Positions 8,731-51,174 of a stretch of DNA of 64,000 bases are shown here, piece by piece. Source of the stretch: an uncultured virus (IMG/VR IMGVR_UViG_3300037249_000775) (taxonomy: Duplodnaviria; Heunggongvirae; Uroviricota; Caudoviricetes). Every line of letters begins with the position of its first letter. Within the stretch, counting starts at the first letter, position 1. Under the pieces are notes generated by a model that saw only the letters and a program-made list of their open reading frames with translations, was not told the origin of the DNA and did no database searches. The translations under genes were made by a program, and so were the position numbers. The stretch lies in the IMG/VR virus record IMGVR_UViG_3300037249_000775; one strand, given 5' to 3'.

Positions 8731-8812
8731 CTTTTGACCTTTCCTCCCTTAAGGGAATATAAAAATATTTAATATGTACGTGTATAAATACTATTAGTAT
8801 TTATACACAAAA

Positions 8813-8847
8813 ATAATATATATATATAAATAATATTAAAATACGGA
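8813..8847 (-). promoter_or_regulatory. Early promoter (TCCGTA box + TATATTAT)
   Basis: Minus strand TCCGTATTTT...TATATTATTTTTGTGTA, as at 10444, 21555, 32198, 39113. Confidence 0.75.
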
Positions 8848-8856
8848 TATTTTTTA

Positions 8857-10391: not shown

Positions 10392-10443
10392 AATGTTACC
10401 TCTTTCTACCTATGTATATAGGATTTATTATTAATACGCAAAA

Positions 10444-10476
10444 ATAATATATCAATTTATTATTTAAAAATACGGA
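10444..10476 (-). promoter_or_regulatory. Early promoter (TCCGTA box + TATATTAT)
   Basis: Minus strand TCCGTATTTTT...GATATATTATTTTTGCGTA; TCCGTA box lies in the arm of the RNAP-gene terminator hairpin (10469-10505). Confidence 0.75.
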
Positions 10477-10507
10477 TAAAGGATATAATATCCTTTATCC
10501 GTATTAA

Positions 10508-21502: not shown

Positions 21503-21554
21503 AAGATAATATTAATAAGAGAACTGTAAGATTATTTCTTACAGTTCTCCTTTA

Positions 21555-21587
21555 TCCGTATTTTTAATATATATATTGATATATTAT
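21555..21587 (+). promoter_or_regulatory. Early promoter (TCCGTA box + TATATTAT)
   Basis: TCCGTATTTTTAATATATATATTGATATATTATTTTT, identical at 32198 and 39113. Confidence 0.8.
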
Positions 21588-21605
21588 TTTTTTGTAAATA
21601 TTAAA

Positions 21606-21678
21606 GGGAGTTATGCTTTATCCCGAGTTTAAATCAAAGCAATGTCAACCCCCGGACGGTAACAGTGGGGAGAAAGGA
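21606..21678 (+). ncRNA. Tandem-pseudoknot 5' leader, copy A
   Basis: GGGA/TCCC + TGCTTT/AAAGCA; TGTC/GACG + CCCC/GGGG; then AGAAAGGA RBS. Confidence 0.7.
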
Positions 21679-21683
21679 CATTT

Positions 21684-22118
21684 ATGTCCAAAGCAATAAT
21701 CAATCTTCCATCAATTGACATGAGCACAGAGTTTACTGAAAACGCTTCTATTTGTGATTCTCTTGCAGTAATTGAAGAGAATCTGAAAACGGCATTGGAA
21801 TTAAATTACATCGCCGCAAAAAAATATTGTGGTAAATCAGTTGACGCGGTAGTTTCCATCTTTAAATATATAAAGGAAGCAACGGGTGATGGTTTTCATA
21901 GTGATATGAATATCATGATGTATAGAGACGGACTCTACAAGTTTCTTTCCGAGGTGTTTCAGAAAGAAACACTCGGTAATGAGCTTGAGGATATTAATGA
22001 TGAACTTGTAGAGTTCATCATCAATTATCGTTCGCAATATACATTTAATGAAGTTGGTGAAACTCTTAAGCATTATATGCTTATTGAAAAAGACGTTGAT
22101 GAGGATGAATATTTTTAA
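21684..22118 (+). CDS. Early accessory hypothetical protein
   Basis: Stand-alone cassette: early promoter, structured leader, RBS, terminator ~22153-22190. Confidence 0.8.
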   Translation: MSKAIINLPSIDMSTEFTENASICDSLAVIEENLKTALELNYIAAKKYCGKSVDAVVSIFKYIKEATGDGFHSDMNIMMYRDGLYKFLSEVFQKETLGNELEDINDELVEFIINYRSQYTFNEVGETLKHYMLIEKDVDEDEYF

Positions 22119-22255
22119 TTTCATCATCTTCATCCTTTAATTAAAAAAATGGAGCTAAGGATTCTGGTGATTCTTAGCTTTATTTTTTTTATTTTTTTAG
22201 GTGCTTATATATTATTTTTTAGAAATTAAAATACATTTAAAAAATCTTATAAAGG

Positions 22256-26405: not shown

Positions 26406-27890
26406 ATGTTAGAAATTGATATTGGATACGTTGGACGTGAACGAACCGATGAAGAACGTGAAGAAATGCGAGAAGAATTAGAATATGAATCGCATGAATC
26501 CAACCACGTAAAGAAAGATAAACTTGGAGAATTTGTTGAGGAGTTTCAGAAACGTCAGAAGCAGTACGACAATTATAGAGCTAAGCGAAATAAAAAGTTT
26601 CCTTGGGAAGAATTATATTCATCAGTTGTAAATGATTTTAACGATGATTATAATTTGAGTAATGAGGAAAAAGCTAAACGAAATCGTTACTATTCTTATC
26701 AGAAAGAATTTATTAAAGGGGGATATAAGTGTCGTGATGTAATATCATATGTTAAGAAAGCAAGAATATCTATTAAATGGCTTTATGAAATTTATAATAA
26801 TATTCCAAGAATTATGGTAAACGAATATACTATGGATTTTATAGAATTTCTTGAAAAAGCTAAATCTGATGCTGATAAAATCAAAGAGTATAATAAGAAA
26901 CTCGAAGATGGAAAGCATGTAAAGTTTCCTGATTTATCTCTTAATATAAATTTGGGTGCTTGGAGTTATCCTAAATATAAACCTAGAAAGAATGCTCTTC
27001 GTTATGATGAAGATTATCTTGAAGAATTTATATTAACTGATAGAGACCCATCTGAATTAATTCCTGAGAATAATGAACCTGAAGAAATAGAGATTACAAA
27101 AGATAATCTCGACGAAGTAGGAGAGAAATTATTTGGTAAAGAAAGATGGGAAGAATTACAGAAATCGCTGCCAGAAGATGATATTTATGCTCGTCAGTAT
27201 GATCCTGATGAAGATGATATCGACGAGCATCCCACATTAGCTATAGTAGGAACTGAAGATGATGCTAAAGCATTATTGAAGTTTGATGACTTAAAAGGTG
27301 TTCTTGGTGATATTGCTCGTAAAGAACGTGGACGTAGTAGACTAAGTAGATGTATTACAGATATTCATCAAGATACTGAAATGACATATTTCGATGACCA
27401 TAAATTCTCAAAGAAATATCAGAAGAAGAATGATAGATTTGAAATTCCATCATTTAAAGGTGATATTAATGATGATAAAGCTTTTGAAAAGTTTATGAAT
27501 CAGATTGAAAATATCGAAGACCAAACCTATTATGAAACTGCTAAAGGTAAGATGATGACAGGTGAAGAAATCGATATGTTAGAACTTAAAGAATTTCTTT
27601 CTGAGAATGGTTGGAAGATAAATGCTTTAAGAGGTCTTGGTGGTAAAAAAGATGAAAAGAAAAAGAAGAAAAAGAAAACAGACTATGACAAAGTTCGTGA
27701 AGTCAAACGTAAGTTGACTAAAGGTAAAATTAAGAAAAAGGTTGGTGTTAATACTAAAAAGAAAAAGAAGAAAAAGGAAAATAAAGCCAAGAAAGAACAG
27801 AATAATGATTTAGAAACTGCTATTTTAAGTGCTGCAGGTAATGAGCAATATAGTAGTTTCGATGAATGGAAAGCTTCATTAGAGGATTAA
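26406..27890 (+). CDS. Hypothetical charged protein
   Basis: True start probably ATG 26406 (AGAAAGGGG RBS, TATATTAT at 26351); poly-Lys C-terminus. Confidence 0.75.
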   Translation: MLEIDIGYVGRERTDEEREEMREELEYESHESNHVKKDKLGEFVEEFQKRQKQYDNYRAKRNKKFPWEELYSSVVNDFNDDYNLSNEEKAKRNRYYSYQKEFIKGGYKCRDVISYVKKARISIKWLYEIYNNIPRIMVNEYTMDFIEFLEKAKSDADKIKEYNKKLEDGKHVKFPDLSLNINLGAWSYPKYKPRKNALRYDEDYLEEFILTDRDPSELIPENNEPEEIEITKDNLDEVGEKLFGKERWEELQKSLPEDDIYARQYDPDEDDIDEHPTLAIVGTEDDAKALLKFDDLKGVLGDIARKERGRSRLSRCITDIHQDTEMTYFDDHKFSKKYQKKNDRFEIPSFKGDINDDKAFEKFMNQIENIEDQTYYETAKGKMMTGEEIDMLELKEFLSENGWKINALRGLGGKKDEKKKKKKKTDYDKVREVKRKLTKGKIKKKVGVNTKKKKKKKENKAKKEQNNDLETAILSAAGNEQYSSFDEWKASLED

Positions 27891-27902
27891 GGAGTATATG
27901 CT

Positions 27903-28790
27903 ATGTTAAAGACAATCAAATCATTATTAATGGAGTTCATTCCATATGAACTCTATTCAGATCTTAACACCGTTGTTGATATGCATGTTGACAACAGTGT
28001 TAAAGAAATAGGTATAAAATATTTATTAACTAAGTATAATATACCTTACACATCATTAGGTTCTGGTACGAATAGATTGGGAATACTTATTGGTGGCTAT
28101 GCATTTAAATTTGCATATGATAAAGCTGGGTGTATAGATAACAGGAGAGAGTTTAAATACTCAAAGCTATTGTATCCATATGCTATCAAAGTCTATGAGT
28201 GTTTTCCCAATGGTTTGATTTCAGTAAGTGAATATATTGAAGTATTTACAGAAGAAGATTTCTGGACTTATAGAGAGCCAATGAAAAATATTTTGACTGA
28301 ATTATCATCGAAATATTTAATCGGCGACGTCGGTATCATTAAAAAGAATCTTACTAACTGGGGAGTTAGACATTCAGAATACGGTGACCAAATTTGTATT
28401 TTGGACTTTGCATATATTTATGATACATCTTTTGGTACATTCGTATGCAGTTGTGATAATATTACAATGTTGGAATATGATAAAACCTTTTCAAAATTTA
28501 TATGTCCACGATGTAGTAAAGTACACACGTTTGAAGATTTACGTTCACGTATTACTAGGAAACTTGAAAGTGATGAAATTGGTGATATAAGGGATCTATC
28601 ATATAACGTAACTTCAGCTATGCAGGACGTAGAATATGTTTCTCAATATTCTGATATCGATGATGACGATGATGATATCATTGAAAATATTGAAAAGATA
28701 AAGGAATATGAGGAATATGAAAAAGAGATGGAAGAACAAAAAGATTTGTTTGACTATCATCCTATGTATGAAAATGAGGATGTAGAATGA
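27903..28790 (+). CDS. Protein kinase-like protein with C-terminal Zn ribbon
   Basis: LGSGTNR (Gly loop), AFK, E helix, GDV..NWG, ILDFA; CSC...CPRC. Confidence 0.7.
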   Translation: MLKTIKSLLMEFIPYELYSDLNTVVDMHVDNSVKEIGIKYLLTKYNIPYTSLGSGTNRLGILIGGYAFKFAYDKAGCIDNRREFKYSKLLYPYAIKVYECFPNGLISVSEYIEVFTEEDFWTYREPMKNILTELSSKYLIGDVGIIKKNLTNWGVRHSEYGDQICILDFAYIYDTSFGTFVCSCDNITMLEYDKTFSKFICPRCSKVHTFEDLRSRITRKLESDEIGDIRDLSYNVTSAMQDVEYVSQYSDIDDDDDDIIENIEKIKEYEEYEKEMEEQKDLFDYHPMYENEDVE

Positions 28791-31619: not shown

Positions 31620-31695
31620 TTAACAAAGGTATCTTTACCTGTATTTTTATTTTTTTTATATTTATATATAATTTAAGTATACATATTGAATATCT

Positions 31696-31764
31696 GGAGT
31701 TATGCTTCTCCTACGTCTAATGAAAAAGCGGTGTCATCCCAAGACAGTAACATTGGGAGAAAGG
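31696..31764 (+). ncRNA. Tandem-pseudoknot 5' leader, copy B
   Basis: GGAG/CTCC + TGCTT/AAGCG; TGTC/GACA + TCCCAA/TTGGGA; then GAAAGG RBS. Confidence 0.7.
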
Positions 31765-31770
31765 CTATTT

Positions 31771-32145
31771 ATGGCTAGATATGATAGATACAATAAAATC
31801 GTCAGCATTGTTGATAAGGAGACTGTTATTAATGGTTTCATTTGTAAACCTAATATGATTGTTATTAGTAATGATGAAGGTGGTCTTGCTGTTATTACGC
31901 GGCGAGAAATGAAATTTTTCGACGCAGATGGTTATCCGGAGTTGTATAAGCTATTTGCGTATGAATTAGTACGCACATCATATGGAGATGCATGGTCTAC
32001 TGGTCGTTATTTGAAGATCACAGATCTTCAGTATGGTATAGGAGACCTGACGAAAAGTCTATTTAATGAGATAACATTGGATACGTGGACGTTCGGTGAG
32101 AGAAACCGATGGCGTTCCGTGGCTGGAATAAGTTTCGTGGATTAA
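31771..32145 (+). CDS. Early accessory hypothetical protein
   Basis: True start ATG 31771 after RBS; N-terminal domain shared with 32310..32909. Confidence 0.8.
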   Translation: MARYDRYNKIVSIVDKETVINGFICKPNMIVISNDEGGLAVITRREMKFFDADGYPELYKLFAYELVRTSYGDAWSTGRYLKITDLQYGIGDLTKSLFNEITLDTWTFGERNRWRSVAGISFVD

Positions 32146-32197
32146 AAAAATAAAGAATGAGATTTGACCAATAGACATGATCCATCTCATTTTTTTA

Positions 32198-32302
32198 TCC
32201 GTATTTTTAATATATATATTGATATATTATTTTTGTGTAATTAGGTTATGCTTAATCCAGTAAAAAGCAGAACTATTCTTCTTATGAAGATAGTAGAAAG
32301 GA
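32198..32302 (+). promoter_or_regulatory. Early promoter plus degenerate leader (copy E)
   Basis: TCCGTA/TATATTAT promoter; GTTATGCTT...AAAAAGCA remnant of first pseudoknot; hairpin ACTATTCTTC-TTAT-GAAGATAGT replaces the second, abutting AGAAAGGAG. Confidence 0.65.
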
Positions 32303-32309
32303 GTCAATT

Positions 32310-32909
32310 ATGACTTACACAAATATTATCAACGTAATCGATACAAAGACAATCATTAAGGGTTTCGTTTGTAAACCGGGTATGATTGTCATCGGTGGAG
32401 AAAATATTCCACTGACAATTTGTACTCGTACGTATACCGATTGTGATCATGACAATGAACTATACGCATTGTATGCGTATCAGTTCATTAAGAATGAATG
32501 GAAAGGCGGTTACTTAGATTTCAGTAGAGTGAGTGACAATCTCATTGAAGAGATTGAAAATCTCATTCAAGAAGAAATTAAGAAAGCCGATGATCAAGCT
32601 TTTAAAAAGGTTTGTGATGAGGCTCTTCAATTTGAGGAGGAAATGCTTGTCAGTTGTGATGATGACGAATATTTCAAATTTGTCACAGTTGTAGGTGGCA
32701 ATAAATGTAATAATGGTGGGGAGTACTGGTTCTATGATGAACTGTACCCAACCATTAAGAAGGGAGTGTTTAAACACTTCACAACTACAAGCTGCGATTT
32801 CGATAATTGTGGCTGTGGATTTGAGGGCTATGTAGTCCTCACAAATGAAATTCTTCAGAAACTTATAGTTGCTGAAGAAGAGGTTCTCGAAAGAGGATGC
32901 CTCTATTAA
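32310..32909 (+). CDS. Early accessory hypothetical protein
   Basis: RBS, own promoter and terminator; Cys-containing C-terminal domain. Confidence 0.8.
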   Translation: MTYTNIINVIDTKTIIKGFVCKPGMIVIGGENIPLTICTRTYTDCDHDNELYALYAYQFIKNEWKGGYLDFSRVSDNLIEEIENLIQEEIKKADDQAFKKVCDEALQFEEEMLVSCDDDEYFKFVTVVGGNKCNNGGEYWFYDELYPTIKKGVFKHFTTTSCDFDNCGCGFEGYVVLTNEILQKLIVAEEEVLERGCLY

Positions 32910-33493: not shown

Positions 33494-33624
33494 AAATTAA
33501 CCCTCTTTCTAAAGTATTAAAAAAATGTAATTATGATGAAAACGAATTTTTAATTTTGTTGTTTATATATTATTTTAAGGTGTATATGAATATTCGTTTA
33601 AATTACAAAGGAGTGTGATAAAAA

Positions 33625-34095
33625 ATGACGAATATTGTAGAATATAGAAATGAACTCTGTAAAGAGTTCATTAAGAACGAAGAAGATTGGCTTCTTCGGT
33701 CAGAAAATATTGCGAGCCTTAAAAAAGCTCGCAAAGAAAAAGAAAGAAAGGAGGAACTTCATAAGAGGAATGTTGAGTTCCTCCTTTCTTTAGCTGTTGC
33801 TTTTATGATGATAGCAACAGCTATCGGTATGGTGATCGGTGCTTTTAGCATCGCATTACCAAAAGATATTGACTATTATGAATCGAAGTATACAACTGTA
33901 TACTACGAGAGTCATATAGTTGAAGAGGGTGAGACTCTTACGGATATTTCTAAAGATATCCTCAAAGCTCACCCAAAATTAGAAGATAAGGTAGGAGGTC
34001 GTTGGAATTACGACGATCTTCTTGTCGAGGTCAATCACCTGGATAATCCTAATATGATTTATCCAGGTGATGAGATTATTTACCCTGTATTTTAA
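33625..34095 (+). CDS. Membrane-anchored LysM-domain protein
   Basis: TM helix then HIVEEGETLTDIS...VNHLDNPNMIYPGDEI; TATATTAT at 33566. Confidence 0.85.
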   Translation: MTNIVEYRNELCKEFIKNEEDWLLRSENIASLKKARKEKERKEELHKRNVEFLLSLAVAFMMIATAIGMVIGAFSIALPKDIDYYESKYTTVYYESHIVEEGETLTDISKDILKAHPKLEDKVGGRWNYDDLLVEVNHLDNPNMIYPGDEIIYPVF

Positions 34096-39065: not shown

Positions 39066-39112
39066 TAATTAAGAATAGATTAGGAAAATCCTAATCTATT
39101 CTTTTTTATTTA

Positions 39113-39145
39113 TCCGTATTTTTAATATATATATTGATATATTAT
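39113..39145 (+). promoter_or_regulatory. Early promoter (TCCGTA box + TATATTAT)
   Basis: Identical to 21555 and 32198 copies; follows terminator 39071-39107. Confidence 0.8.
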
Positions 39146-39165
39146 TTTTGTGTAATAAAATATCT

Positions 39166-39237
39166 GGAGTTATGCTTCTCCTATGTCTAATTAAAAAGCG
39201 GTGTCATCCCCAAGACGGTAACAATGGGGAGAAAGGA
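39166..39237 (+). ncRNA. Tandem-pseudoknot 5' leader, copy C
   Basis: GGAG/CTCC + TGCTT/AAGCG; TGTC/GACG + TCCCCA/TGGGGA; then GAAAGGA RBS. Confidence 0.7.
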
Positions 39238-39242
39238 CATTT

Positions 39243-39632
39243 ATGTCTAACAGTTATTATTTTATAAATATTACAAATCATCCTGCTGCAAAATGGTCAG
39301 CGGAACAGCTTGATTCCGCTAAGAGATATGGAAATGTCGTGGACATACCGTTTCCACAAATTTCACCAACAGCAACTCAAGATGAGATTAAAAAGATGGC
39401 AAAAAGCCTCGCTGCAGACATTTGCGGCACATATCAGATTGGGGATGGTGCACTGGTGCAGGGTGAAATGACTTTCACTTATGTGCTTGTACATGAGCTG
39501 CAAGCACGTGGAATTGTATGCTTTGCTGCTTGTAGCGAGCGTGTAACTGAAGAGGTTGTTAATCCTGACGGAACGACTACCAAAAGAAGTACATTCAAAT
39601 TCGTGCAGTTTAGGGAGTATCCTACTTTCTAA
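39243..39632 (+). CDS. Csx20-like ring nuclease (candidate type III anti-CRISPR)
   Basis: NHP..W..EQ, LVQGEMTFTY.LV, AACSER..EE...DG...K.S.FKFVQFREY resembles recalled Csx20-family consensus (LIQGDF..TY..V...ATT.R...E...DG...K.S.FKHVRFR.Y). Confidence 0.7.
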   Translation: MSNSYYFINITNHPAAKWSAEQLDSAKRYGNVVDIPFPQISPTATQDEIKKMAKSLAADICGTYQIGDGALVQGEMTFTYVLVHELQARGIVCFAACSERVTEEVVNPDGTTTKRSTFKFVQFREYPTF

Positions 39633-47650: not shown

Positions 47651-50470
47651 ATGGCAGAAAAAATTATAAAAGAAAATGTTGCAGATGCAGCCGAAAGATA
47701 TTCGTGTATTTTCGGTGCAAATAAAAATTTGTATAGAACAATTCCGTCTATGCAAGATGGATTGACTTAAAAGGTTTAGTCCATGTAAAACCTCTCTAAT
47801 TGCGGGGAAGTTACGTAAGTATCAATTACTAAACTATAAGTGATATTATAGTGGCAATGGGTAACTCCAAAGGTATAGTAACAAGATTGATAATGTAACA
47901 ATCGACGCAGCGAAGTATCTCAAAGTATGAGATATAAGTTCAACGACTATCGAAAGCTATATAATCATATAGAAATATATGGTTTGAAAATAAGGTAGAG
48001 TGAAATATCTACACGAAGTGAGTAGAGTAACGCCCAAGTGTTTGGGGTTGGTAGTTAGATGAGATTAGTCTAACGTAAATCCATTAAAGTGAAACGGGAG
48101 GCTCTAATATATTTGGTAATAGAATATATTAGATGAAGATATAGTCTAGTAATAAATATTACTGTAAAACCTGGAAAAAGACGTTTGTTTTATGCTTGGT
48201 GGGAAAATGCAGGAAAACCAACTAATACAAAAAAAGAAACTTTAAATAAGTTAAAGTTCCAAAAAGTTCATAATATCGCATCATGGTCAATGATCTATCA
48301 TCCGCACTCGGTCGATTCTAATGAGGAAATTGTTGCTAATGAAGGTCAAGATTGGAATAATAATGTATTAACAGTAGTTCCTCAAGGTAACTTTGGTTCT
48401 ATTCGTGGAGATAGACCAGCATCTGGAAGATATACTGAAGCAAAAATGAGTGAATATCTTATTGATTGCTTCTTTGATGATTTTTATAAGTATTCTATAC
48501 CTATGAAAGAATCATATGATGGTGAACGAGTTGAACCTGAATTTCTCCCAGCAAAATATCCACACGCTTTATTTAATCCACAACTTTCTGGTATTGGTTA
48601 TGGATTAGCATCAAATATTATATCGTTTAATGTAGCTGAAGTTCTTAAAGCAACTATTAAGTTGATTAGAGACCATCATGCTAAAATTATGCTTATACCA
48701 GATATTCCGACAGGTGCAGAAGTTGTTGATACTGGTTTATTTAAAGAAATAAATAAAACTGGTGTAGGAAAAATAACAATGAGAGCATCTGCAGAGATTG
48801 ACCATAATAAAAATATTATTAGGATTACATCTCTTCCATTACAGATGTCATCAATGCAAGTTATCAAAAAGATTATTGAAAAGAAAAAGAAAAATGAATT
48901 TCAAGAAATTATTGAGATACTCGATTATACAAAATTAGGTAAAACAGATATTCGTATTCAGTTAAAGAACGATGTTAATCCTGATAAAGTATTAAAGAAG
49001 CTTTATAACAAAGGAACTGGATTGAAAGATACATTTCCTGTTTGTATAAAGCTTATTGATGATTACCGTGAGTTTGATTATGGTATTAAGTCATTCTTAA
49101 AAGAATGGATAGAATATCGTAGAGATGTTGTGCGTTCCATGTTCTCTAACGATCTAATTCAAACTATGGAGAAACAACATATGAATGAAGTTCTTCTCTT
49201 TGTATTTAATGAAGATAATGCGGAGAAGACTTTGAAGATATGTAAAAAATCTAATAGTAGAAAAGAGACCATTGAGAAACTTCAGAAAACTTATGATATT
49301 ACATCTCTTCAAGCTTCTACTATTGCTGATATGCGATTGTATAATTTTAATAAAGATTCATATCAGAGATATAAAGAAGAGAAAAAAGCTCTGGCAGAAA
49401 ATGTTGATAGAATTATGAATATTCTTGATAATGAGAATTTGATTGATGATTTTATCATTGAGCAGTTAGAATCAGGTATAAAGAAGTATGGTCAGCCAAG
49501 ACGTTCTAAAATAGTAAAAGAAGATTCTGAATTGGATATTGAACAAATTCCTGATACAGAACATTTGATTGCTATTACTGAAACAGGAATTATTAAGAAG
49601 ATTAATCTTGATAAGTTTGATACTATTGGAGTTGTTGGTAAGAAATCAGATAATTTCTCTGTTATAAGAATTAAGAATAGAGAAGATATTTTAATAATTG
49701 ATTCTCAAGGTGAAGGAATCCGTATTCCCGTATCATCACTTCCTGATATGGATATTAATGATACTGGTGTTGAGTTATCAAGATATTTTAAATGTACTGG
49801 TAAAATTGTGAGTATGTTAAAACTCAGTGATACAAGTATGTTAAAAGATAAACATATCACGATAACATTAGTAACAAAATGGGGACTTTGTAAAAGAGTC
49901 AAGATGTCTGAATTTAAAGGATTATCTGGAACACGAAGTCTAATAACTCTTAATGATAGTGATGAACTTGTAGCAGCATTATTCACATTAGATGATGACA
50001 ATAGTGATATTATCATTTATACTAATGGTGGTTATGGTGTAAGAATACCTGTTAAAGATATAAAAATATCTGGTAAAGCAGCTAAAGGTACAAAACAAAT
50101 TAATTTATATAGTGATGCAAATATAATTGAGAATGTAATTAATGCAAATATAATTGATTCCTCTAAGAAAACATTACTCTATGTTACAACAAGTGGTAAA
50201 ATGAAAGTAACACAAGAGAAATATTTTCCAAGACAGAAAAGAGGAGACGATTCGTTACAATTGATTACATTGGATATAGGGAAGAATGAACAACTATTAT
50301 ATGTAGCATCAGTAAGTCATAAGAAAGATACTGTACGAGTTTATTTTAAGAATAAAGAACCGGTTGAATATAAGTTAAACAATCTTAAATTAACAACACG
50401 AATAGCTAAAGGTGAAAAAGTAGTTAAAGTTCCTAGAGGAGAATCAGTTGTTAGTATAAAGATTATATAA
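47651..50470 (+). CDS. gyrA: DNA gyrase / type IIA topoisomerase subunit A, spliced: exon 1 47651..47762, exon 2 48165..50470 (805 aa)
   Basis: AAGGAGG RBS at start; splicing restores DGLKPGKRR; QGNFGS, catalytic RYTE, GIGYG; C-terminal beta-pinwheel repeats. Confidence 0.92.
47763..48164 (+). mobile_element. Group I intron (402 nt, no homing endonuclease ORF)
   Basis: 5' splice U47762 pairs with G47779 in P1 (exon ATGGAT / IGS GTCCAT); core elements AATTGCGGGGAA (P), AATCGACGCAGC (Q), GTTCAACGACTA (R), AAGATATAGTCT (S); terminal G48164; IGS GGTTTA can pair with exon 2 TAAAACC (P10). Confidence 0.92.
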
Positions 50471-50552
50471 TAATTAATGCAGATAAAGAATATATTCTTT
50501 ATCTGCATTTTTAATAAATTTATATATATATTATTTTAGTGTAAATATTAAA

Positions 50553-50624
50553 GGGAGTTATGCTTTATCCCGAGTTTAAATCAAAGCATTGTCATCCCAA
50601 GACAGTAACAGTGGGAGAAAGGAG
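50553..50624 (+). ncRNA. Tandem-pseudoknot 5' leader, copy D
   Basis: GGGA/TCCC + TGCTTT/AAAGCA; TGTC/GACA + TCCCA/TGGGA; then GAAAGGAG RBS; TATATTAT at 50527. Confidence 0.7.
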
Positions 50625-50628
50625 CCTT

Positions 50629-51174
50629 ATGGCTAACGTACATTATAAAGGAATTCTTGGAGAATTTGATTACAACGATAGTGAGTTTAAAATAACATAT
50701 GCAACCGATCCATACACTAAAGATGTAATTCGTTATATAGGAGATTCACCTAATCCTGTTATTCCTGAAGGGATTCGACGTTGTGATAGACTATTTGTAA
50801 ATTGTACCCTTATTGAAGTTGCTCCGGTTATTCCGGAAAGCGTACGATATTGTAATAGGATGTTTGCAAACTGCACGAATCTTAGAACTGTGTATAATCT
50901 TCCGAAGAAATTATTTGAATGTCGTGGAATGTTTGAAAATTGTACATCTCTTGAAACATCGCCACAGCTCGGATGTATAAGAGATTGTAGTTACATGTTC
51001 AATGGGTGTAGTTCTCTTAAAATTGCACCAGAAATCCCAAACAATGCAAATGATTGTAGAGGGATGTTCAAGAACTGTGTCAATATTAATAATGCTCCAA
51101 AGATTCCAAAATATGCGTCTTATGGAGATATTTTTTACGGCACAAAGTTCTATGGAACATGTGTTAGAAAATAA
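50629..51174 (+). CDS. Early BspA/DUF285-like leucine-rich repeat protein
   Basis: Repeats C..MF.NC.SL..AP.IP; true start ATG 50629 after RBS. Confidence 0.8.
   Translation: MANVHYKGILGEFDYNDSEFKITYATDPYTKDVIRYIGDSPNPVIPEGIRRCDRLFVNCTLIEVAPVIPESVRYCNRMFANCTNLRTVYNLPKKLFECRGMFENCTSLETSPQLGCIRDCSYMFNGCSSLKIAPEIPNNANDCRGMFKNCVNINNAPKIPKYASYGDIFYGTKFYGTCVRK

Follow-up and report, generated by a model that had tools for sequence, protein, structure and literature searches.

Why would early genes that have little in common with one another begin with the same leader, and what might that leader do for them? Within a 64,000-nt stretch of an uncultured virus (IMG/VR record IMGVR_UViG_3300037249_000775; the whole stretch is hereafter called the window), four leaders of about 90 nt (copies A, B, C and D, beginning at 21594, 31679, 39152 and 50541, respectively) and a degenerate fifth (copy E, 32237) precede five genes that are mutually unrelated, except for those behind B and E (38% identity over 65 aa). 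A preliminary description of this DNA had presented four copies of an unrecognised 5' leader, each able to fold as two consecutive H-type pseudoknots (PK1 and PK2), and a degenerate copy around 32240. The four copies were found at these positions with the described stems, and copy E aligns with them.

That the virus is a jumbo phage is indicated by its PHROG matches (major head protein, terminase, PhuZ-like tubulin, topoisomerase II and dCTP deaminase). Its head protein matched 20 phage records, every one at less than 60% identity, with matches at 23-24.5% to Bacillus AR9/PBS1 (24% for the AR9 major head protein), Staphylococcus jumbo phages and Yersinia phages. Taken together, the PHROG and head protein matches mark the window phage as a distant relative of the uracil-DNA jumbo phages. 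This AR9-like phage is from the cattle rumen. Neither the region nor the leader had a related match among phage records by megablast or blastn. Window words were found in bovine and goat gut runs from about 18 studies, and three metatranscriptome runs contained 38-45% of them. The Bacillus setting assumed in the preliminary description is thus wrong for the habitat, as the phage occurs in bovine and goat gut runs. A relative with 54% head protein identity sits in a sheep MAG labelled Lachnospiraceae, which is a weak hint at the host.

AR9/PBS1-type jumbo phages have their early genes transcribed by a polymerase that is injected from the virion, and to our knowledge the fate of these early transcripts after synthesis is almost unstudied. 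The available part of the AR9 report (PMC5312081) maps early starts to the G of the consensus AAATATATATTAT-(6N)-G+1, and gives long 5' UTRs (26-491 nt) as well as an unexplained motif in early UTRs. In the window, TATATTAT-N6-G, which fits this early (virion RNA polymerase) promoter consensus, was found upstream of copies A, C, D and E and at eight further sites; copy B has TATATAAT-N6-A. About 13 such promoter sites lie in the window, each 35-92 nt ahead of an SD and ATG, and the leader is present at five only. The starts of the window copies, predicted by analogy with AR9, lie 12-17 nt ahead of the first stem. The leaders lie between an early-type promoter, with a variant in B, and the ribosome-binding site, as had been proposed, and the SD AGAAAGGA directly follows the last stem. 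The features are as follows.

21554..21594, plus strand: promoter cassette of copy A, TTTATCCGTATTTTTAATATATATATTGA-TATATTAT-N6-G, predicted start G21594
21606..21641, plus strand: PK1 of copy A; stem 1 GGGA 21606-21609 / UCCC 21621-21624, stem 2 UGCUUU 21614-21619 / AAAGCA 21636-21641
21643..21670, plus strand: PK2 or hairpin 2 of copy A; stem 1 UGUC 21643-21646 / GACG 21655-21658 (unproven), C-run/G-run stem to 21670 (plausible as a hairpin)
21671-21678, plus strand: SD AGAAAGGA of copy A, followed by AUG 21684; start-codon hairpin GGACA(UUUA)UGUCC at 21676-21689
31679..31776, plus strand: copy B; promoter TATATAAT at 31665-31672, predicted start A31679, PK1 31696-31730 (GGAG/CUCC and UGCUU/AAGCG), PK2 31732-31758, AUG 31771, start-codon hairpin
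32237..32315, plus strand: copy E, reduced form; predicted start G32237, hairpin 1 UGCUU 32249-32253 / AAGCA 32265-32269, AUG 32310 within a hairpin
39152..39248, plus strand: copy C; predicted start G39152, PK1 39166-39200, PK2 39202-39230, AUG 39243
50541..50634, plus strand: copy D; predicted start G50541, PK1 50553-50589, PK2 50590-50616, AUG 50629
8770-8850 and 10400-10480, minus strand, and 21550-21572, 32193-32215 and 39108-39130: sites of the block TTTATCCGTATTTTTAA

A 38-nt promoter block is identical at three places in the window, with 0 mismatches, against 0 such occurrences expected. At several early promoters, also in contig G016 (see below), the conserved block TTTATCCGTATTTTTAA precedes TATATTAT by 25-45 nt and may serve the virion polymerase as an upstream promoter element.

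All H-type pseudoknots with stems of at least 4 bp and loops of 1-8, 0-3 and 2-16 nt were enumerated, and the best non-overlapping pair was taken. This unbiased enumeration returned the two consecutive pseudoknots of the preliminary description, PK1 and PK2, as the top tandem pair in 4/4 copies. In tests devised after the model had been seen, as were the other shuffle tests below, the observed stacking sum was matched by 0, 2, 1 and 0 of 500 dinucleotide shuffles for the four copies. The score of the weakest copy was reached by 158 of 12782 natural 90-nt segments of the same 64 kb (1.2%) and by 35 of 1416 GC-matched segments (~2.5%), and the nested minimum free energies of the copies were ordinary (z -0.2 to -0.6). 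The tandem score is uncommon, not extreme, and alone is suggestive only, the four copies being one family. A comparison with Rfam gave no match at gathering score over the 64-kb window; at E<=10, copy A had two minus-strand matches with E values of 8-10, which are noise, and copy B had none. The leader is therefore unrecognised by Rfam, as had been supposed, and represents a new RNA motif.

A covariance model, R1, was built from the four window copies. The search with this model that had been suggested earlier recovered, within the window, only the four copies and copy E. R1 found zero true members in 15 IMG/VR records whose head proteins are 56-69% identical, nor in a sixteenth record, G017; two weak matches in record G014 and one in G017 were rejected as coding-like sequence. 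Inspection by eye of the early leaders of G001, the closest complete relative, revealed short and unrelated sequences. AR9 shares the motif TATATTAT-N6-G with the window, as far as the available part of its report goes, but differs in that 30 of its early leaders, extracted and inspected by eye, show no comparable repeated leader, and in its distant head protein. Because R1 found no member in the 16 related records and none was seen by eye in AR9, the element appears to be young and dispensable for this phage group.

Other scans extended the family. A metagenome scan gave two matches, one of which lies in coding sequence; the other, L048, is a true homologue that precedes a diverged version of gene A. 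A scan for the promoter together with GGAGTT led to G016, an IMG/VR contig of 139.5 kb with five members: F resembles D, G and H are of a new type, I is a minimal form, and J is the counterpart of E. Six loci were returned by a scan of the HP1 pattern, two of them being members I and J; L174 and L177 (GC-rich context) and L176 (coding-like sequence) were rejected, and L179, in which an HP1-like hairpin precedes an SD but without such a promoter, is ambiguous and was excluded from the family. Pattern scans of IMG/VR with the 3' half of PK2 (31 loci) and with a goat-gut variant (4 loci) yielded chance matches only. Among 58 loci carrying GGAGAGCAACACTCC, the only leaders were two sites in G016; GTTGC follows within 40 nt at 11 of these loci, and the other nine of these belong to an unrelated terminator-like repeat. 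The family thus comprises 11 members from three sources: A-E in the window, L048 in the metagenome, and F, G, H, I and J in G016. It is confined to one narrow phage lineage.

Pairs were counted per sequence by a script, and a MAFFT alignment had no common columns for the shifted arms. The crossing order S1a-S2a-S1b-S2b of PK1 is the top-scoring H-type arrangement in A, L048, D, F, B, C, G and H; in member I it comes second by 0.2 kcal/mol, and in E and J stem 1 is weak. The geometry comprises a stem 1 of 4-6 bp, a stem 2 of 5-8 bp, and loops L1, L2 and A-rich L3 of 1-4, 0-3 and 2-14 nt, respectively. Loops of these lengths are compatible with both helices forming together, and we infer that the two PK1 stems may form simultaneously.

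Stem 2 reads UGCUU(U)/(A)AAGCR in 9/11 members and GCAAC/GUUGC in G and H, in which 5/5 pairs are altered on both sides and all remain Watson-Crick, within flanks (GGAG, CUCC and a 14-nt loop 3) that are still alignable with copy B. With stem 1 fixed and the loop and downstream letters shuffled, p values for stem 2 were 0.004-0.006 for G and H and 0.01-0.09 for the remaining members. For stem 1, three pairs of complementary arms are seen, GGGA/UCCC (A, L048, D and F), GGAG/CUCC (B, C, G and H) and UAAUAG/CUAUUA (I). With hairpin 1 fixed, the p values for stem 1 were 0.010-0.034 in these 9/11 members, and 0.24-0.25 in E and J, where the stem consists only of GGUU/AAUC (copy E) or GAUC. Furthermore, two variable stem-end positions carry A or G opposite U (U-A or U.G; e.g., 39200 G>A), which pair on the plus strand only, and a goat-gut variant has UUUGCACUU where others have UUAUGCUU.

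For PK1, the earlier claim that pairing is kept while sequence varies was upheld: G and H have all five stem-2 pairs swapped, and stem 1 comes in three complementary forms. On these same grounds, PK1 is probably a selected RNA fold, with comparative support that is good, though thin: the covariation amounts to few events, one stem-2 helix swap and three stem-1 versions, among 11 sequences from three sources. The strong conservation could owe much to recombination between cassettes.

These stems are inverted repeats at the DNA level as well, and an AUG, that of GUUAUGCUU, is present in 9/11 members; in B and D it shares the reading frame of the gene. That the element is a repressor-bound DNA repeat, or else an upstream ORF encoding a leader peptide, is nonetheless extremely improbable. 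Both stem-2 versions are present in one genome, G016, so that one DNA-binding protein cannot read both half-sites, and U.G pairs work on one strand only; a DNA operator was rejected on these grounds. G, H and the goat-gut variant (X4) of copy B lack the AUG, which lies 2 nt behind GGAG and stands in a different frame in A and C (71 vs 69 nt); the leader peptide was rejected for its absence in some members, this 2-nt spacing and the frame not being kept. A reading of the 5' GGAG arm as a ribosome-binding STAB-SD was also rejected, since member I has AAUAG there.

Behind the PK1 fold, all eight long-form members carry a C-run/G-run hairpin that ends at the SD and whose run lengths vary roughly together (5/4, 5/4, 4/4, 3/3, 3/3, 3/4, 3/3 and 3/3 in A, L048, C, B, D, F, G and H, respectively). 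At this place, copy E has an unrelated 9-bp hairpin (32273-32293) and J has none. Stem 1 of PK2, UGUC/GACR, exists in one sequence version, without covariation, and its p values of 0.017-0.10 are not beyond chance; it is only 3 bp long (GUC/GAC) in G and H, where the end pair is lost (U-A to A/G), and the sole compatible change is U-A to U.G or the reverse. The claim of pairing kept despite sequence change therefore fails for this stem. Loop 3 of PK2 is GUAACA in the seven long-form members with a UGCUU-type stem 2 and UUAAAA in G and H. PK2 is thus half supported: the hairpin beside the SD is plausible, and the crossing stem 1 is weak.

The stems given for this module in the preliminary description stand in the main, except that copy A has five Cs facing four Gs rather than CCCC/GGGG, and that the sixth stem-2 pair of copy B (A-U) is replaced by A/G in 4/4 other runs (31753 T>G). 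The likeness that had been seen to the gene 32 pseudoknot is weakened, as it rests on this sixth pair, which other strains lack. The T2/T4 pseudoknot is dedicated to gene 32 alone, is bound by the product of that gene, and has a long open AU-rich stretch behind it; the present leaders precede unrelated genes, their fold adjoins the SD, and the 6-bp stem of copy B is strain-specific. Common to both are the H-type fold within a phage 5' leader (36 nt in T2/T4, PDB 2TPK, in the available part of PMC5684407) and a single-base loop 1, which here is found in PK2 of B, C, D, F, G and H.

The element adjoins the SD with a gap of 0-5 nt in 11/11 members. At the leader-gene junction in the window, the spacer behind the SD pairs with the UG of the AUG and with codon 2 across a four-base loop, forming start-codon hairpins with GGACA/UGUCC in A, GGCUA/UGGCU in B, GGACA/UGUCU in C, AGCC/GGCU in D and AGUCA/UGACU in E; L048 has the same arms as C. 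The hairpin arm covaries with codon 2 in the five window copies. The energies of -6.0, -5.9, -5.4, -3.8 and -3.6 kcal/mol correspond to ranks 1, 2, 3, 5 and 6 among 51 window gene starts, copy A having the most stable hairpin (-6.0 kcal/mol). The hairpin is absent in 5/5 G016 members, and is therefore not a family trait.

A second class of early leaders was observed, whose initial 8-10 nt are perfectly complementary to the start codon region together with codon 2. G016 has seven of them (L158-L164; e.g., predicted transcription starts at 78243+, 104001-, 99047-, 138389- and 107653-), with 5' ends such as GUCAUAAU, AACAUAAUAA and AGCAUAAUAA facing start regions AUUAUGAC, UUAUUAUGUU and UUAUUAUGCU. 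Among the early leaders of the window and G016, 7/39 reach -8 kcal/mol or lower, compared with 2.9% for mismatched pairs. A window leader at 33580 (33580-33650) pairs GAAUAUUCGU with codons 2-4.

Several observations show that the element moves with its promoter as a mobile cassette among unrelated genes. The copies are mosaic, A and D sharing one type of PK1 and B and C another, while PK2 groups A with C and B with D. Hairpins are present upstream, each with a sequence of its own; what is conserved among the copies is the promoter together with the leader. In L048, these two and the terminator are 88-95% identical to the window, around a protein of which about one third of the residues are identical (own count from the alignment). 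In G016, leader G, which has a B-type promoter and the swapped stem 2, precedes the homologue of gene D (43% identity). Contigs from other strains depart from the window at 21577, 31693, 39151 and 39155, that is, at promoters or starts; these departures would reflect cassette-bounded gene replacement, or may in part be assembly breaks at repeats. Divergence at promoter cassettes was also seen at 22201 and over 31642-31693 and 39102-39155, and at 39151 one run continues with a second-class leader (AGCAUAAUAAG...). The genes behind B (31771-32145) and E (32310-32909) are adjacent paralogues and appear to be a tandem duplication in which one leader came to be without PK2 by loss.

This arrangement recalls PeSL of T4-type phages, in which, according to the available part of the report (PMC2839356), a short conserved early-promoter cassette is repeated before small genes of unknown function and the genes between cassettes are swapped among close relatives. 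PeSL differs in combining, as that part describes it, a sigma-70-like promoter with a terminator stem-loop; in the present case, the promoter belongs to the AR9 virion-polymerase type, terminators vary per copy, and a folded leader of 40-80 nt with covarying stems follows. The repeat could in principle be a recombination or promoter cassette only, kept alike by exchange, with pairings that are functionless by-products. The mosaic copies, the nearly identical flanks of L048 around a far more diverged gene, the contigs that leave the window at promoters, and the modular shuffling mediated by PeSL cassettes (again in the available part of PMC2839356) all fit this explanation. We consider it unlikely, as the two-sided stem-2 swap in G and H and the three stem-1 versions are unexpected without selection for pairing, and as the leader-gene junction adapts to codon 2 in the five window copies.

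The preliminary description had the leaders coordinating anti-defence genes, which applies to at most one of the five products. The product of gene C (39243-39632, 129 aa) is Csx20-like (PADLOC PDLC01397, E 8e-34; NCBIfam NF040559, 53 bits, below the cut-off of 70), and no family was found for the other four. As an early phage gene product with the fold of a type III CRISPR accessory protein, this Csx20-like protein is a candidate anti-CRISPR and could counter type III CRISPR.

With slightly more confidence than doubt, we propose that the element is a cis-acting structured leader that would set the initiation context of whichever gene it is joined to, and would probably also slow 5' decay. The virion RNA polymerase would start at a G or A six bases behind TATATTAT; after an AU-rich tail of 6-17 nt, the RNA would fold into PK1. 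In the long form, the second module would add the C-run/G-run hairpin, possibly closed to a second pseudoknot, with its 3' arm ending at the SD AGAAAGGA. Acting in cis, the fold would fix the structural context of the ribosome-binding site whatever gene lies behind, thereby setting translation initiation, and would probably slow decay from the mRNA 5' end. A structural role in cis at the ribosome-binding site or the 5' end is suggested because the position beside the SD is constant (11/11), the stem sequences change freely and the loops vary. The same three features disfavour a ligand pocket or a site for a sequence-specific protein.

A known parallel for this position is the activator pseudoknot of IncI-alpha/IncB repZ/repA, whose 3' arm lies directly 5' of the ribosome-binding site and promotes translation; it forms only when a leader peptide is translated, and an antisense RNA counteracts it. 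The likeness lies in the pseudoknot 3' arm beside the ribosome-binding site, and neither a leader peptide nor an antisense RNA was seen here. The preQ1-I, SAM-II and guanidine-III riboswitches of Rfam are similar in size, topology and SD position; by contrast, these leaders have no Rfam match, and the letters of a ligand-pocket loop are not conserved. A ligand-gated switch, one of the functions floated earlier, is therefore unlikely, as loop sequences are not conserved among types.

Free stem change and variable loops also mean that a conserved recognition surface is missing for an RNA-binding protein of the phage or host, to which the element might serve as an operator in the manner of RegA or gp32; in a variant of this idea, it would be a put-like RNA acting on the polymerase. 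Only 4-5 of the ~13 early promoters of the window carry the element, which would thus mark a subset, and some loop letters are shared (the GUAACA of the seven UGCUU-type long-form members, the UUAAAA of G and H). We nevertheless give either version little credence: a candidate protein is lacking, and an element acting on the polymerase would not need a constant place beside the SD.

The same SD-proximal position raises a two-state translational switch, in which the pyrimidine tract of PK1 (CUUUAUCCC, UUCUCC or UCUAUU) would alternatively pair with the purine run at or in the SD (GGGAGAAAG or AAUAGG), and loss or occupation of the 5' arm would turn translation off. The minimum free energy fold of copy D pairs exactly these two tracts, and the CUAUU tract of member I fits both the upstream AAUAG and the AAUAG that overlaps the SD. 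However, the tract-RBS duplex was no better than that of shuffled tracts of the same composition (p 0.05-0.78, 11 members), the extended complementarity is gone in G and H (4 bp only), and in the long form the purine run is already occupied by the arm of hairpin 2. Such a switch therefore seems quite improbable.

Compared with the initiation-setting leader that we favour, a narrower reading would have the element act as a block to 5'-to-3' exonucleolytic decay of the RNase J type ahead of the coding region. It lies near the 5' end in every member, and the second-class leaders of G016 also bury their 5' ends, with the first 8-10 nt paired to the start codon region in seven leaders. We regard this reading as unlikely, given the free tail of 6-17 nt ahead of PK1; moreover, the only pointer to the host and its nucleases is the Lachnospiraceae MAG relative, which is weak evidence. 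Unlikely too is a portable 5' guard of virion polymerase transcripts, a phage counterpart of xrRNAs that would halt RNase J-type decay just before the SD and move with the promoter; in a variant, loss of the 5' arm would free the anti-RBS tract and so time early shut-off.

The leader is compact, supported by covariation, modular (PK1 alone or with a second module), placed beside the ribosome-binding site and exchanged with its promoter among unrelated genes. Should it control translation or stability irrespective of which gene follows, it would be a natural portable 5'-UTR part; it would also make a new Rfam family. These claims extend to one narrow lineage and 11 sequences, from which the function is inferred.

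Two other features of the window were observed. A group I intron at 47738-48164 (Rfam RF00028, 40 bits against a gathering score of 50, E 7.9e-9) interrupts the topoisomerase II (GyrA/ParC-like) gene between '...IPSMQDGL' and 'KPGKRRLFYAW', and its sequence recurs at 3-4 places in contig G016 with 87-92% identity. Furthermore, the summed contig depth at 27670-28336 reaches 307 and 612 in two metatranscriptome runs, compared with ~10 elsewhere and in DNA runs; many loose contig ends lie at 27758 and 27785, in A-rich sequence, and the high depth is probably low-complexity cross-matching.
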